Shown piece by piece: positions 1-18,560 of a stretch of DNA of 64,000 nt. Both the position numbers and the translations under genes were made by a program. Position 1 is the first letter of the stretch, and each line of letters begins with the position of its first letter. Below the pieces are notes generated by a model that worked only from the letters and a program-made list of their open reading frames with translations, was not told the origin of the DNA and searched no databases. Origin of the DNA: a virus (lineage: Duplodnaviria; Caudoviricetes); IMG/VR virus record IMGVR_UViG_3300033463_000049, positions 1 through 64,000 of that record; one strand, written 5' to 3'.

Positions 1-144
1 TTGGCTTTACACCACTTCAACGCCAAGTTTAACATAAGGGGCATTCTGTCCCCCAGCATTGCTTTGTATCCGTTCATACAGTTAAAAATTAGTTGGACGA
101 CCCGGATTCGAACCGGGAATGACAGAACACGTGTTTTTGTATAG

Positions 145-215
145 TTGCCCCAACAGGATTCGAACCTGTGCAGCAAGACCCAAATTCTTGAGTACTACCG
201 TTATACTATAGGGCA
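145..215 (-). tRNA. tRNA-Gln(UUG), nested inside the split tRNA
   Basis: TGCCCTA/TGGGGCA acceptor; anticodon arm CAAGA-AT-TTG-GG-TCTTG; T arm ACAGG-TTCGAAT-CCTGT. Confidence 0.85.
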
Positions 216-216
216 A

Positions 217-750
217 TCAGTTAGGTATATTGTTATAACATTTTATACACATTTTAGAACCGTAATTCATAGGACCTCCACAGTAAGGACATGTGGTATC
301 TGATTTATTAGAATTTCCACAATAATTTTCTGTCTGAGAATGACAATTAGGACATAATATCTGTAAATTTGATAATTCATTGTTTGTCGTATCTCCATCT
401 ATATGATGAAGCTGACATACTAATTGTTTACCATTCCATTCAGATATTCCGCAGATTTCACATCTGTTTTCTTTATATCCTTCATTAATCAATCGATCCT
501 TCAGTTTTGCAGATTTTATTGTAGAATTCTTTGTTAGATATTCTTTTATGTCTTTACGTTTCTATCCTTTTTTCTTCTTATTTCCATAAGTAAAATGTGA
601 AAAGTCAATATTATATAATAATATCTTCTTTTTTAATGTTATTCCATTATTACCTTGTATTGGGATATTTAATTTTCTCAACACATCGCAGAAAGAGTCG
701 CAATCTTTTATGACTCTTTCAATATTTTCTTTTGTCCAATTATATTTCAT
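217..750 (-). CDS. HNH homing endonuclease, 177 aa with one in-frame TAG=Gln
   Basis: ORFs 562-789 and 217-492 are in frame and joined through TAG at 564-562. Motifs CEICG...LHHIDGDTTNNELSNLQILCPNCHS and a C-terminal CPYC/CIKC. Confidence 0.9.
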
Positions 751-851
751 ACATAAATAACGAGCAAAATTCTCATTATAGTTGTACAAAAGTACACATT
801 CTGTAGTGTTACCATTACACCACCGTCCGGTTTAACATTAGTTATTAGTTT

Positions 852-886
852 AAAAGTAGCCGCCATCTTCACAGACAGCGACTACC
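852..886 (-). terminator. intrinsic terminator-like hairpin with GUGA tetraloop
   Basis: GGTAGTCGCTGTCT-GTGA-AGATGGCGGCTAC-TTTT. Confidence 0.55.
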
Positions 887-931
887 GGCTTCATTAAAGT
901 AATAAAAACCTAAACTAAGACCAATTGGTTG

Positions 932-1005
932 TGGACCAGCCAGGGCTTGAACCTGGGACCTCCAGATTATGAGTCTGTTGCTCTAACCAACTGAGCTACA
1001 AGTCC
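932..1005 (-). tRNA. tRNA(CAU), elongator type (Ile2 or Met)
   Basis: GGACTTG...ACAGA-CT-CAT-AA-TCTGG...CCAGG-TTCAAGC-CCTGG-CTGGTCC-A. Confidence 0.9.
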
Positions 1006-1246
1006 TTATGCTAGGGGCTACTATACTTCACCCCTAGCTACCATTCACCTAAGAGATTAGGACTCCCATCCAATCTCAACATACGTCTCACGACGTTTTA
1101 TCTTTTACCAGCATAACTGCGGTAGATTCTGCGTAGGCGGTATTTCTGTTTTATACCGATGTTGCCAGATAACGTTTCTGTTCATAATGTGATCAACAGT
1201 ACGAATTTCTGGATATCCTACTCGAATTTTGTAAAAACTAATCATT

Positions 1247-1840
1247 TTATTTTTGTACTTTGAACACTCTCATGCGCAGAGTTGGGAACATTTCGCGAAT
1301 CTTCTCTTCTGACACTTGTTTGTGTAAAGTTACATAGCATACGTTCCTTTTGGTTATTATAGAATCCTTGTCTATACCAGCCTTAAGAAGCATCTCTTTT
1401 GCTGCATTTTCAGCATGCGCTACAATGTTTATTGTAACTTCTTCTGATGAAACAACACGATGTCTCACGTCTCTCTTGCAGACAGTTCTCTTCCTTGTCT
1501 TATCTGTAACGTAGAAGAAATTAGAAGGAACGAGAATCTGAAGGATCCTCTTAACAGTGATAGCCGGCGTCTCTTTCTTGGACAACGGCACAATCCACGT
1601 CTTTTCACCATTCTGGTGATAGAACGTTTTACAACCAAAGTGTTCTTTGTTGAACAGCAATCGTTTTTCGTGGATTTTTGAAGGATCTACTCGGTGAGCA
1701 TTAATTCTCCTTCCTGTAGCCTCATCTACTTCTTTCTGTTCTCGTTTGAGAGACGACAGAAGTGGTCGCTTACTCGGCGCCTTTTTTACTTTCCACGAAG
1801 CATTTGTGCGACTTTTAGCATGCAATAAACATTTTTTCAT
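1247..1840 (-). CDS. hypothetical basic protein
   Basis: 197-aa ORF preceded by the shared CATTATCAAA-ATG start motif. Confidence 0.75.
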   Translation of the reverse strand: MKKCLLHAKSRTNASWKVKKAPSKRPLLSSLKREQKEVDEATGRRINAHRVDPSKIHEKRLLFNKEHFGCKTFYHQNGEKTWIVPLSKKETPAITVKRILQILVPSNFFYVTDKTRKRTVCKRDVRHRVVSSEEVTINIVAHAENAAKEMLLKAGIDKDSIITKRNVCYVTLHKQVSEEKIREMFPTLRMRVFKVQK

Positions 1841-1911
1841 TTTGATAATGCTTTTTGTTTAACTGTTATAAAATATCCAGTTTTTAAAGAACTTGGTATA
1901 AACTTTTATAA

Positions 1912-2931
1912 TTATTTCCAAAATTTTATCGTTTGGTTTTTAACGTAATCTTTGAACTTTGGATATTTCTTGTCGATTGACTCTCGTTCAGTCGTCCAAA
2001 CGTAATCAGCGTCTACACATATTTTAGCTGATGGTTGTCCTTTGAACCAAGGAATACTACAATCACCAACTTTAATAGGTATATCGTTTATATTCTTCGT
2101 TTGTATTCTGAACTGAACGGGTGGCGTTTCGTTGTAACTATAAGTATTAACCATAGTCTTAGTACTTACTCCAAACGCATTGTGTACTTCATTGCCATCT
2201 ATATATAATGGTAAAGTACCTCCTGCGGCGAGCAATGTAACTACATCACCATCTATTCCAAATACCACATCGTTGTAGTCGAAATCAGTGCTTTGTACAC
2301 CTAAATCTTCTGCAATTATGATTTTAGAATATGCCGGTGAGATTTTCACAATCCAATCATTGTACAGTCCGTCAGGACTTTCTCGCTGATTAGGATTCAT
2401 ACCGTCAGCAGAAAAATCAAAACCTACGTAATATTGACCATCGATTTCTTTTATATAATAGTCGTTGTGCATCTTATTGTCAAGACTATTATGATAACCG
2501 AAATTAAGCGTTGTAGAGTTGACCATCTTCATAACACTACCAGTATTGGCATTGAAGTTTGCTATGTGGTCATCGTAGCCGCAATATAGCCAGTCCATAT
2601 TAGAGTGTTTGCCAGATATGTGTTGAACATAAAAGTTCATCCAGTCTACTTCGATACTGTTTGTAGGAAAGTAGTGTGTGTCAAACCAACGCGTCACTTT
2701 CTCTATCTCTGTACGAGTAGGGGCAGCTGGCGTGTAGTCCCACATATTGGCATTTACATCAGCGCTACGTGTAATAGCGTCAAATCCCCACATATGGTCT
2801 TTTTGTGGTTCACCATAGGTACTTACGAACTCCTTTTTGAAGTTCTCGTTTTTGACCTGTTGCTGGTCAATGTTTTCTTTACAGCAACACATTAGTACTG
2901 TAAGAAGTAGGAATAGAATTGATTTCTTCAT
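1912..2931 (-). CDS. Bacteroidota-type lipoprotein, DUF4842/LruC-like C-terminus
   Basis: Lipoprotein-type signal MKKSILFLLLTVLMCCCK; motifs AEDLG..TDFDYNDVVF, LLAAGGTLP, W..ER..I...YP.F. Confidence 0.7.
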   Translation of the reverse strand: MKKSILFLLLTVLMCCCKENIDQQQVKNENFKKEFVSTYGEPQKDHMWGFDAITRSADVNANMWDYTPAAPTRTEIEKVTRWFDTHYFPTNSIEVDWMNFYVQHISGKHSNMDWLYCGYDDHIANFNANTGSVMKMVNSTTLNFGYHNSLDNKMHNDYYIKEIDGQYYVGFDFSADGMNPNQRESPDGLYNDWIVKISPAYSKIIIAEDLGVQSTDFDYNDVVFGIDGDVVTLLAAGGTLPLYIDGNEVHNAFGVSTKTMVNTYSYNETPPVQFRIQTKNINDIPIKVGDCSIPWFKGQPSAKICVDADYVWTTERESIDKKYPKFKDYVKNQTIKFWK

Positions 2932-2955
2932 TGTTTTTTTGTTTTATAAATATTT

Positions 2956-3423
2956 TTATAATTTTAATGGCGTTCTGTAACACTCATCTTGTTCCCGGAT
3001 CAAGAATCTTGTTATTCCTACAAAAGTAAAGAAACTCTGATTTAACAGATACAATTCATGCTTTCTCCAAAATCTCGAAACTTGTGGTACAATATGTCCA
3101 GGAATTATTCGTTCCCCGTACTTCATTGTTGCGCACAATGGGTGTTGATTTAAGAATTCCTCTGTTAGTCTAAATGTGACATAACCAAAATACTCCCACG
3201 ACCAATAGCCAACATAGACATCTTTTGGCATCAGACAGTCTTCCGGAGCTAATTCCGTTGGTCTATCTTCACGTGCAAAGTTTAAGTATCCGAGCAGAGG
3301 TTTGCCGGTTTTACTTTCTACGGTACATATTATTGTAACAGGTCTTACAATACTTATATACCCAGGAACAAGAATTAATTCTATAGCTCCTTGAACATTG
3401 ATTGTGTCTCCTCGTTTCCACAT
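2956..3423 (-). CDS. hypothetical protein
   Basis: 155-aa ORF colinear with its neighbours. Confidence 0.7.
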   Translation of the reverse strand: MWKRGDTINVQGAIELILVPGYISIVRPVTIICTVESKTGKPLLGYLNFAREDRPTELAPEDCLMPKDVYVGYWSWEYFGYVTFRLTEEFLNQHPLCATMKYGERIIPGHIVPQVSRFWRKHELYLLNQSFFTFVGITRFLIREQDECYRTPLKL

Positions 3424-3456
3424 AATAATTATAATTTAAAAGTTTACAGATTCTAG

Positions 3457-3509
3457 GAGTGAGTGCGGGAGTCGAACCCGCAGAATTAACTCGTCCAAAT
3501 TACTCACTC
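3457..3509 (-). ncRNA. tRNA-like minihelix (8-bp acceptor plus T arm, no D or anticodon arm)
   Basis: GAGTGAGT/ACTCACTC stem; GCGGG-TTCGACT-CCCGC T arm; 20-nt connector. Confidence 0.7.
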
Positions 3510-3800
3510 TTTGTTCGCGTTTAGGTAGTACGCACCGACTTCACGCAGCCTCCTTGAGGCCCGTGTAGTCTGCAATGTTAATATTGCCAGTTAAATTTAT
3601 ATCAAAGCGCTTAATGTGTTTACTTCCACTGCCGTCAAATGCATTCAGGCCCGTGTTAAAATGGGGCGCGTGACAGTCGCCCCGCCAGTGTTCGATTGAG
3701 TGTATATTTTCGGAACTGGTAGTGGACCTGGAGGGTATGCCTCCCTCGTCCGAACAGTTTACCTCACACACGCTAAGATTTCGCACTAAAGATCGTGGAA
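3510..3800 (-). ncRNA. ssrA: circularly permuted (two-piece) tmRNA; outer boundaries approximate
   Basis: Acceptor piece ends GGAC-GAGGG-AGGCATA-CCCTC-CAGGTCC-A (3723) and lies upstream of the coding piece starting GGGCCTG (3652). G3:U70 pair and A73. Tag frame 3588-3541 encodes GNINIADYTGLKEAA-stop after TAACT. Confidence 0.85.
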
Positions 3801-4117
3801 ATAACTATTCCATAATGGAGATTCCCCATCTCCGTCTACTTCATTGCATGAACAATAATCTTTGACTTCTGGGTTATCTTCTAAGGACTTTAACATTTCC
3901 TCGGCCTTTTCATCAGATACTTGGTAAAAAACTAATATATGTTTCATATCAAATAAATATTTGTGAGCAAAGGTGGACGCGACCCGCCAATGCTCTGTGA
4001 CGCTATTTTAAAGCCTCCTGGCGCATTTTACAGTCGTTGTGGTCAGCTGTTCCACTTTAACTATAAAACGCGTCAGAGAGGCTGTAAATGGCTTATGAGT
4101 GTGTACGGTGATATGAC

Positions 4118-4388
4118 TGATACAAAGATACTCGCATGTCGTACAGACGTACTTTGATAGTCTGTATGAGCTAAGCTGGTACAATGACACACATACAGTT
4201 TTGCTATTGAGCATAAAAGCATATTTTACGTCTTAGCTAGACGTTTGAATCCACCATTGATACAAAGATACTTAGGCATGTGTCGATTCACATAACACCT
4301 TTGCAATACTCTTCGTGGTCTTATTTGTCTAATTACAATGCCGTTTCCTAAATGCAAATTGGTGTATTACACGTGATACAAAGATACT
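4118..4388. repeat. three exact 15-bp direct repeats TGATACAAAGATACT
   Basis: Copies at 4118-4132, 4258-4272 and 4374-4388; the minus strand contains TATCTTTG (Bacteroidota -7 box TAnnTTTG). Confidence 0.85.
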
Positions 4389-4415
4389 TGTGTATAGATT
4401 CGTTCCTACCGTGGG

Positions 4416-5015
4416 TTACCAACGCCACGAATAAGAGAAGTAGCCAGGATACTCCGACTCGAGGTTGCTCTTGTCGATATCATACTGCTTCTCCAGAGCG
4501 GTCTTTTCCTTACGCTCTGCATCTGCCATACGCTCGCTCAGATCGTCGTACTCAGGACAGGTGATGCTGCCAGGAACCCAGACCTCTTCGCCGCCCTTCT
4601 TGAGCTCGAATGTCTTCTTCTCCTTAACAGGGTTGCCGTCCTTATAGTCGGTGATGACTTCCATCTCCAGCTTGCCGTCCTTGCCGCCCATTTTGGTGAT
4701 GTGCTCTTCGTTGAGCAAGAAGCCGGACATCTGATACTGGAGCTTTTCAGCCTCTTTCAGGTACTTCAGCGTGATGTTGTTCTCATGACGACGCTTCTGC
4801 AGCTGCAAAAGCTTAAGTCTGCGCTGGAACTCTGAGCGCAGCGAACGCGTCATGATGTTTTCCTTCAGACGGTCGTCCTTGGTTTTCTTGATGTTCTCCA
4901 TCACTGCCTTAGTGATTTCTACACTTGCAGTACCTTCTCTACGTACTACTGTGCTGATGTTGTCGATGTCGACAACGCCGTTTTGCTGCTGAGCAGCGTC
5001 TTTCTTGTTTGCCAT
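4416..5015 (-). CDS. hypothetical protein, probably highly expressed
   Basis: 199 aa, strong codon bias, CATTATCAAA-ATG start motif. Confidence 0.85.
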   Translation of the reverse strand: MANKKDAAQQQNGVVDIDNISTVVRREGTASVEITKAVMENIKKTKDDRLKENIMTRSLRSEFQRRLKLLQLQKRRHENNITLKYLKEAEKLQYQMSGFLLNEEHITKMGGKDGKLEMEVITDYKDGNPVKEKKTFELKKGGEEVWVPGSITCPEYDDLSERMADAERKEKTALEKQYDIDKSNLESEYPGYFSYSWRW

Positions 5016-17570: not shown

Positions 17571-17648
17571 TGCCCCGTAGTGTAAATACCTTAAACACAG
17601 AGGATTCTAGCCCCTCATTTGGTCGCAGGTGACGGCCCGGGGTGACCA
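17571..17648 (+). tRNA. amber suppressor tRNA(CUA), probably Gln, with non-canonical D and T loops
   Basis: TGCCCCG-TA-GTGT-AAATACCTTAA-ACAC-A-GAGGA-TT-CTA-GC-CCCTC-ATTT-GGTCG-CAGGTGA-CGGCC-CGGGGTG-A-CCA; anticodon 17607-17609. Confidence 0.85.
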
Positions 17649-17670
17649 ATACTGAGAAAACAGTAAACAC

Positions 17671-17774
17671 ATCGGCGTAGTTCAAGAAAGGTAGGATAGA
17701 TTGCATGATACTCCCCTTGAGGACGATTGATAAGTATACAGTCAAAGCAGGTGCAACACCTGTCGCCGATACCA
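17671..17774 (+). tRNA. tRNA-like RNA with a 35-nt expanded anticodon loop
   Basis: ATCGGCG/CGCCGAT-A-CCA; D arm GTTC/GGAT; GATTG/CAGTC stem; T arm GCAGG-TGCAACA-CCTGT. Confidence 0.7.
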
Positions 17775-17777
17775 AAT

Positions 17778-17849
17778 CGCGGAGTGGAGAAGAGGTAACT
17801 CGTCAGGCTCATAATCTGAAGATCGCTGGTTCGATTCCAGCCTCCGCAA
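17778..17849 (+). tRNA. initiator tRNA-fMet(CAU)
   Basis: C1:A72 mismatch; TCAGG-CT-CAT-AA-TCTGA; GCTGG-TTCGATT-CCAGC. Confidence 0.9.
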
Positions 17850-18521: not shown

Positions 18522-18560
18522 AACCATATATATACTAATTACGCGTAAAAATTAAAAGAT

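Follow-up and report, generated by a model that had tools for sequence, protein, structure and literature searches.

The tRNA-Gln locus at the beginning of IMG/VR record IMGVR_UViG_3300033463_000049 is best explained, with a probability that we put at about 0.7, as a mobile "cut-and-replace" cassette, in which a free-standing HNH gene and its own tRNA-Gln(UUG) appear to have taken the place of the anticodon loop of a resident tRNA-Gln. The locus shows three of the properties by which a homing cassette is recognized, namely, a homing-family endonuclease gene, presence/absence polymorphism at one homologous site, and an element that is more diverged than its exons. The record is that of a crAss-like phage (102,216 bp) whose nearest GenBank matches are uncultured crAss-type phages; the window, i.e., the whole stretch of DNA analyzed here, is its first 64 kb.

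On the minus strand, the locus reads, from 5' to 3', tRNA-Met (1005-931), the 5' half of a tRNA-Gln, 47 nt, the HNH open reading frame (ORF), a tRNA-Gln(UUG), 15 to 17 nt, and the 3' half of the outer tRNA-Gln, which is followed after 17 nt by the ATG (position 76) of a gene encoding a 171-aa protein (Table 1). The initial annotation had placed two tRNA halves at 829-798 and 128-93 around an insert, and these coordinates were right, with C829-A800 and T126-A93 forming the tRNA parts. Its description of the insert as an HNH ORF plus an intact tRNA-Gln(UUG) was equally accurate, 673 nt separating the two halves. The resident gene is split exactly between the two strands of its anticodon stem.

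Table 1. Features of the split tRNA-Gln locus, with positions counted along the 64,000-nt window
Feature	Position	Strand	Description or basis
Outer tRNA-Gln, nt 1-31	829-800	-	Acceptor 5' strand, D arm, anticodon-stem 5' strand (ACAGA)
Terminal helix, 5' arm (A TGTGT AC TTTTGTA)	785-799	-	Occupies the place of the anticodon loop; covariation in six alleles
Small leader hairpin (ATGAG-N7-CTCGT), upstream of the HNH ATG	760-776	-	Read from the six-allele alignment, columns 53-71
HNH homing-endonuclease gene, 177 codons + TGA	217-750	-	ATG at 750, TGA at 219-217; phrog_10822
Cargo tRNA-Gln(UUG), intact	145-215	-	ARAGORN and Rfam (57.5 bits)
Terminal helix, 3' arm (TACAAAA ACACG TG T)	127-141	-	Pairing and covariation
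Outer tRNA-Gln, nt 39-73	126-93	-	Anticodon-stem 3' strand (TCTGT), 4-nt variable loop, T arm, acceptor 3' strand, discriminator A93

The halves that flank the insert had been called tRNA-Gln-like, a description borne out by their 78 to 85% identity to the unbroken tRNA-Gln(UUG) genes of relatives. Since the cargo tRNA is only 63 to 69% identical to these same genes, the halves belong to the resident gene and the cargo tRNA is of foreign origin. When the halves were joined, ARAGORN accepted the product as a tRNA at each junction tried, and C1/A72 was the sole stem defect of the joined window halves. The UUG loop was restored at none of these junctions, the products reading GUG, GUU, GGU, or CGU. 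The loop letters at the junction vary between alleles, and the near-universal U33 is a C in L131, L137, L136, and L134, four of the related loci described below. ARAGORN did not call the split tRNA-Gln in its intron mode. A "tRNA-Ser with 604-nt intron" that the program reported at 3456-4153 was rejected, as this candidate overlaps a tmRNA-like region. That region (3457-3800, minus strand) contains a permuted two-piece tmRNA-like gene that scores 42.9 bits against the Rfam tmRNA_permuted family, just below the gathering score of 47; permuted tmRNAs were also called by ARAGORN in L003, L042, L043, and L131, with tag peptides that end in VDYTGLKEAA or VDYTGLKEVA.

The cargo tRNA-Gln(UUG) scores well above the Rfam gathering score of 29 (Table 1), has canonical cloverleaf loops, and is the sole tRNA-Gln in the phage genome. 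It begins 1 nt after the stop codon of the HNH gene. All 71 of its nucleotides are identical in the window and L131 despite a dS of 0.71 between their HNH genes, and 63 to 71 of the 71 positions are identical in five alleles, which keep the loop AU-UUG-GG; the cargo tRNA of L139 carries compensatory changes in the anticodon and T stems. Its anticodon arm is CAAGA-AUUUGGG-UCUUG, versus ACAGG-UUUUGGU-UCUGU in alleles that lack the insert. Given this pattern of identity and compensatory change and the dN/dS ratios of 0.12 to 0.29 for the HNH gene in six alleles, both cargo genes are under purifying selection and functional.

The HNH ORF matches phrog_10822 (E value of 4e-41), and its CxxC...H...N...CxxCH columns are invariant; its matches to the Pfam families HNH and HNH_3 fall below the cutoff. 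The frame is open but for one TAG at 564-562, across which the phrog_10822 profile aligns straight. In the two closest alleles, L131 and L137, this codon aligns with TGG (Trp), so that a single G-to-A change, located in a variable lysine-rich linker, accounts for the difference. Since the window has TAG where its relatives have TGG, its own enzyme may be inactive. When a 91-aa fragment of the HNH protein served as the query, nothing close was retrieved, whereas the full 177-aa reading (TAG as Q) matched proteins at 86, 84, 80, 69, and 67% identity, all of which are encoded without a TAG. Among GenBank phages, only distant matches to the HNH core were obtained, and the element itself was absent. 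Roughly 10 nt upstream of the HNH start codon, we also observed a leader hairpin preceded by an invariant CAAC. It is present in the window, L131, L137, and L139 (ACGAG-N7-CTCGT in relatives), and its stem letters change together as read by eye from the alignment.

The in-frame TAG has a counterpart in the coding of the phage at large: TAG is a sense codon in the plus-strand late genes, from window position 18549 to 64000 and on to genome position 81407, where readthrough opens frames of 5416, 2341, and 1501 codons that contain 57, 18, and 18 TAGs, respectively. With its single TAG, the HNH gene would then yield full-length enzyme only in the late phase, when TAG is suppressed, unless the codon is a fresh nonsense mutation. 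No tRNA with a CUA anticodon was called by ARAGORN across the whole phage genome. Two tRNA-like sequences, a CUA "suppressor" and a tRNA body with a 35-nt loop insert, had been proposed at 17571-17774 and were seen by neither ARAGORN nor Rfam (E values up to 5); just a tRNA-Met at 17778-17849 with a C1/A72 mismatch is called.

Uninterrupted alleles in relatives, which the initial annotation had suggested seeking as a check, were found with a UUG anticodon at the same site (L042 and L047 to L050). Sixty-eight relatives were identified through the 171-aa downstream protein. L042 has the order permuted tmRNA, tRNA-Met, unbroken tRNA-Gln(UUG), and the same downstream gene (83% identical protein), and the window minus 666 nt aligns collinearly with it. 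A pattern built from the 3' half recovered four further unbroken tRNA-Gln(UUG) genes in IMG/VR (L047 to L050), all with the anticodon arm ACAGG-TTTTGGT-TCTGT; the exact 23-nt pattern of the 5' half had no match in IMG/VR. From L043 and L003, a tRNA-Gln is absent at this site altogether.

At least six alleles are filled (the window, L131, L134/L135, L136, L137/L138, and L139), and the five other than the window come from independent ENA and Logan assemblies. Every one of them has the order half, HNH gene (177 aa), tRNA-Gln(UUG), half, and L131 belongs to a 103.5-kb phage with the window's gene order. The six align end to end with a mean column identity of 84%, and the distance from one anticodon-stem strand to the other is 665 to 677 nt. 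The exons of individual filled alleles are nearly indistinguishable from those of empty ones: L137 differs from empty L048 at 1 of 64 positions (G31 to A), and L131 differs from empty L047 and L049 at 2 of 64. The HNH genes, in contrast, are separated by a dS of 0.64 between L131 and L137 and of 0.64 to 1.9 among the six alleles. Since the divergence of the elements thus greatly exceeds that between the exons of filled and empty alleles, resident genes were apparently invaded repeatedly rather than sharing a long descent with the cassette. These comparisons indicate that the cassette has spread horizontally, most likely by homing. The six outer tRNAs also have differing acceptor stems (CGGACGG, TGGATCA, TGGACTA, TGTCTCA, and TGGGTTA), each of which pairs with its own 3' strand, a pattern that would fit the invasion of several distinct resident alleles.

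The nested layout is also seen in unrelated phage contigs. In L008 (2787-3747 of a 167-kb contig), outer Gln-like halves whose acceptor strands pair at 7 of 7 positions surround a tRNA-Gln(UUG) and a gene for a 237-aa HNH protein; the 3' strand of the outer anticodon stem was not found in this copy. L010, an unrelated 57-kb viral contig, carries four cassettes of a nuclease gene plus a tRNA-Leu at 937-4598, each within a split tRNA-Leu and all in one array. Both gene orders occur among them, two nuclease ORFs (1045-1563 and 3004-3477) run into the beginning of the cargo tRNA, and the outer anticodon was read as matching that of the cargo in at least two of the four; in the cassette at 3945-4598, one strand of the outer anticodon stem was not found. 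At 1709-2236 of L131, an intact tRNA-Met precedes an HNH_3 gene (1801-2198), beyond which lies the 3' half of another tRNA-Met, one similar to the tRNA-Met of the window; this arrangement looks like a second cut-and-replace event at the neighboring tRNA gene. At least 577 relatives of the HNH protein are present in IMG/VR. As for further HNH loci, the gene lies inside a split tRNA of 780 to 900 nt in about 17 of 80 and adjoins an intact tRNA in 46 of 80, so this HNH family is at home in tRNA genes. Because our relaxed split-tRNA detector was noisy with AT-rich 7-mers, only GC-rich, hand-checked cases were counted, and brute-force joining of the halves at other loci gave ambiguous anticodons.

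The ends of the cassette pair into a helix of 18 to 20 bp that continues the anticodon stem. That such a helix exists between the insert ends had been noted from the window alone, where 13 extra pairs stack on the anticodon stem. By anchored pair count, this number was reached by 32 of 20,000 shuffles and by 100 of 20,000 random pairs of genome segments. By energy, the window helix is unremarkable: its duplex energy was matched in 2.5% of the shuffles and in 10% of the random genome pairs, the minimum free energy (MFE) of the hairpin was reached by 9% of shuffles, and the helix is not formed in the MFE fold of the whole 737 nt. The case for it is therefore made by the anchored pair count and the comparison of six alleles. 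All six have the helix, with 10 to 15 extra pairs built from unrelated sequences, and their pair counts were reached by 18, 1, 1, 41, 8, and 166 of 5,000 shuffles. The 5' arm of L134, for example, forms 15 pairs with its own 3' arm and 0 to 6 with the arms of other alleles. The arms read TGTGT/ACACG in the window, CAAAGTTC/GAACTTTG in L134, and TGTATG/CATACA in L139, and the inner helix reads TTTTGTA/TACAAAA in the window, TTTTGTG/CACAAAA in L137, and TTTTATG/TATAAAA in L136.

Covariation of the helix, another check named at the outset, was evident in the six-allele alignment, in which 10 of 15 pairs have changed on both sides and 89% of the cells are paired. Of the whole structure, 93% is paired, compared with 36 to 52% when the partner strand is slid by 1 to 3 columns, and none of 500 shuffles reached 93%; these figures come from six sequences, and the structure was derived from those same sequences. 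By this measure, the helix is under selection and maintained by compensatory change. The staggered 2-nt bulges that had given it the look of a bulge-helix-bulge (BHB) motif were not robust, since they represent one of two registers and ViennaRNA favors an 11-bp run, a 2x2 loop, and 7 bp over them. The interruptions of the helix are of the types 2x2, one 1-nt bulge, 1x1 plus 1 nt, 3x1, and 2x1, depending on the allele, with L131 having 13 contiguous pairs and the single 1-nt bulge. What the helix does is a matter on which we are tentative, with the odds somewhat against any one proposal of ours: the paired ends may form an RNA stem by which the outer tRNA fold encloses the insert, acting as a processing site (e.g., for RNase III) or as part of a natural "tRNA scaffold" with ends trimmed by RNase P and RNase Z.

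We also considered and dropped a promoter as the reason for the inner 5' arm. The sequence TACTTTTGTA fits a -7 box, whose Bacteroidota consensus we take to be TAnnTTTG, but the box is kept in just two of the six alleles. In the window as a whole, TAnnTTTGTA is enriched (12 occurrences versus 5.4 expected; 0 of 100 shuffles reached 12). Three exact copies of AGTATCTTTGTATCA lie upstream of the tmRNA region (window positions 4118-4388, minus strand, with further positions at 785-794 and 3019-3028). The copies of AGTATCTTTGTATCA and TAnnTTTGTA are likely Bacteroidota-type -7 promoter boxes.

The covarying helix bears on whether the filled state is instead old and vertically inherited, such that the halves plus helix constitute a functional, non-decoding tRNA-like RNA, serving, e.g., as RNase P/Z punctuation for the operon or as a scaffold that stabilizes the HNH message. 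Compatible with such a history are, besides the helix, the constrained length of the insert and the outer halves themselves, whose stems are intact in most filled alleles and have changed in both strands at 4 of 7 acceptor pairs and 4 of 5 T-stem pairs. The covariation of the exon stems is, however, equally explained by the invasion of different, previously functional alleles, and some filled alleles have stem defects (C1/A72 in the window; C31/T39 and C50/A64 in L136). Exons that differ at only 1 or 2 of 64 positions from empty alleles, in L137 and L131, while the elements they flank have diverged to a dS of 0.64, are better accounted for by recent invasion. We therefore regard long vertical descent as unlikely. 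A functional, non-decoding role of the outer RNA is possible in view of the intact stems, for which recent homing also accounts.

It is improbable, in our judgment, that the helix is an RNA processing signal that directs excision of the 673-nt insert from a precursor, after which the halves would be joined again or kept together to form a working RNA and the cargo tRNA would belong to the device instead of being just a spare. In that case, the locus would be a phage tRNA intron that depends on proteins and not on a ribozyme, or else a natural tRNA scaffold.

With regard to splicing, the initial annotation had offered two options, of which a homing element that carries a substitute tRNA fits all of the comparative evidence, whereas a BHB-type intron is not supported. 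Its remark that there is too little room for a ribozyme core was correct: the noncoding stretches measure 47 and 15 to 17 nt, and a narrow Rfam search of window positions 60-900 for a group I core yielded the cargo tRNA only and no intron. A search of like width (851 nt) of L007 served as a positive comparison and returned Intron_gpI (RF00028; 26 bits, E value of 2e-4). In this locus (2883-3706), the same HNH family occupies a split tRNA that has a long variable arm and some 200 nt of additional sequence, and the insert is a probable group I intron by virtue of this Rfam match. A split tRNA-Gln was also considered for L007, but a tRNA-Leu(UAA) split between nt 34 and 35, presumably the classic site, agrees better with the long variable arm and with a by-eye boundary after U and after G.

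The insert would be a true protein-dependent tRNA intron if its helix offered sites to an endonuclease and a ligase, such as a host RtcB, rejoined the halves into a functional outer tRNA. Stacking of a covarying helix on the anticodon stem is indeed the usual geometry of pre-tRNA introns, the outer stems are intact, and RtcB is present in Bacteroides thetaiotaomicron, a possible type of host that was included in our comparison panel. Nevertheless, a 7-nt loop with UUG, or with any anticodon shared between alleles, can be regenerated in no allele, and the replacement of U33 noted above affects four of them. Since the interruptions differ in position and size in every allele and the 3-4-3 bulge geometry appears in none of the six predicted duplexes, the helix is not a BHB motif. 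A search of the rest of the phage for RtcB or an RNA ligase, suggested as a check, came back empty: the EndA, RtcB, T4 Rnl1, RNA_ligase, and LigT families (PF01974, PF01139, PF09511, PF09414, and PF02834) had no match in the phage. Moreover, beside a spliced tRNA there would be no need for a cargo tRNA with the same anticodon that strong selection maintains, and the outer genes of the analogous cassettes in L008 and at L010 3945-4598, each of which appears to lack one strand of the anticodon stem, could not be spliced. An intron of this kind is thus quite improbable. Since UUG is restored at no junction and the phage has no ribozyme, BHB geometry, EndA, RtcB, or RNA ligase here, the outer gene most likely represents a relic whose function the cargo tRNA has taken over.

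The paired ends could also be read as the terminal inverted repeats of a transposon-like DNA element, inserted by transposition rather than homing. The arms do amount to imperfect inverted repeats of 13 to 16 nt, and a short direct repeat, GTGT, flanks the window's copy. However, the recognition site of a transposase would be conserved, whereas the arm sequences are unrelated between alleles and tolerate G-U pairs and bulges; an arm has no second copy in the window or the compared loci; the element always sits at the same site of the same gene; and its sole ORF encodes an HNH nuclease whose family is otherwise encountered in group I introns of tRNA genes. Transposition is accordingly very improbable.

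The IMG/VR record is broken inside the split-tRNA locus. Window positions 1-180 are repeated at genome positions 102037-102216, a direct overlap with one mismatch at window position 53 that produces a G/R residue change in the 171-aa downstream protein; this 180-nt terminal overlap suggests that the genome is circular or terminally redundant and varies within the population. That the layout is an assembly artifact or a meaningless one-off rearrangement is virtually ruled out, since the original JGI contig carries the locus internally, identical except at position 53, and the five further filled alleles come from separate assemblies.

The cut-and-replace reading leads to the following scheme. 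During mixed infection, the HNH enzyme would cut an unbroken allele in or near its anticodon stem-loop, and repair would copy the cassette from the filled allele, with the tRNA halves and flanks providing the homology. Neither the split site nor the cargo tRNA, whose sequence differs, would be cut. The outer halves would no longer yield a decoding tRNA, judging from their sequence, and the cargo tRNA would cancel the cost of losing the target, the role that self-splicing presumably plays for the intron-borne relatives of the enzyme. Against this scheme stand the selected terminal helix, for which a pure DNA parasite with dead exons has no obvious need, the outer stems, which are intact in most alleles, and the TAG in the window's own HNH gene.

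A tRNA nested within a split tRNA together with an HNH gene was not described in the literature covered by our full-text searches, in agreement with the earlier remark that no element with this layout was known, and a survey of crAss-like phages (PMC7886860) contains no description of the cassette. The closest described system is SegB of phage T4, a free-standing GIY-YIG nuclease encoded in a tRNA cluster that cuts the tRNA genes of phages lacking SegB and whose inheritance brings neighboring tRNA genes with it (PMC2330249); "intronless homing" by free-standing endonucleases has also been described elsewhere (PMC13096335). Like SegB, the cassette has an intronless nuclease gene among phage tRNA genes and is polymorphic for presence or absence between related phages. 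SegB, however, lies between genes and recognizes the T-loop region, whereas the HNH gene of the cassette lies inside its presumed target and replaces the anticodon loop. Unlike SegB, the cassette, whose cleavage activity is putative, has a fixed tRNA cargo with the same anticodon and a covarying closing helix.

With the mobile group I introns found in tRNA anticodon loops, the cassette shares the insertion region and the HNH family. Unlike these introns, it has no ribozyme core and leaves an anticodon loop that cannot be restored; its tRNA gene occupies the place of the ~200-nt core of its intron relatives. In the BHB tRNA introns of archaea and in split tRNAs such as those of Nanoarchaeum, a helix beside the halves extends the anticodon stem. 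The helix of the cassette does the same and would bring the halves together, but it has no 3-4-3 geometry, occurs in a bacterial setting in a phage without EndA or RtcB, and leaves no functional loop after a cut-and-join reaction. In "fractured genes," a homing-endonuclease gene has interrupted a host gene, which split inteins later repair (PMC2677866). As in these, a nuclease gene lodged within an essential or useful gene disrupts it without an intron, at a cost that is covered by other means; the product of a fractured gene is repaired by protein trans-splicing, whereas the broken tRNA gene is replaced by a spare copy that is carried along. The geometry of the cassette is that of a tRNA scaffold, in which a stem leading into a long foreign RNA replaces the anticodon loop and the acceptor, D, and T arms stay intact. 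Such scaffolds, with an insert on an extended anticodon stem, are a laboratory design engineered for the production of recombinant RNA.

To our knowledge, homing endonucleases have been thought to survive within genes only by means of self-splicing introns or inteins and otherwise to reside between genes. The cassette would add a third route, by which the element breaks its target and carries a working replacement, so that splicing is not needed. It is also an annotation trap, because ARAGORN and Rfam see only the cargo tRNA, and cassettes of this kind would explain "orphan" tRNA halves and duplicated isoacceptors in phage tRNA arrays. The TAG codon in the nuclease gene may tie its expression to the code switch of the phage, in which TAG becomes a sense codon late in infection. 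If the end helix directs processing, it would bear on how bacteria and their phages handle interrupted tRNAs. Finally, such cassettes would provide a way by which phage tRNA genes are exchanged between genomes.
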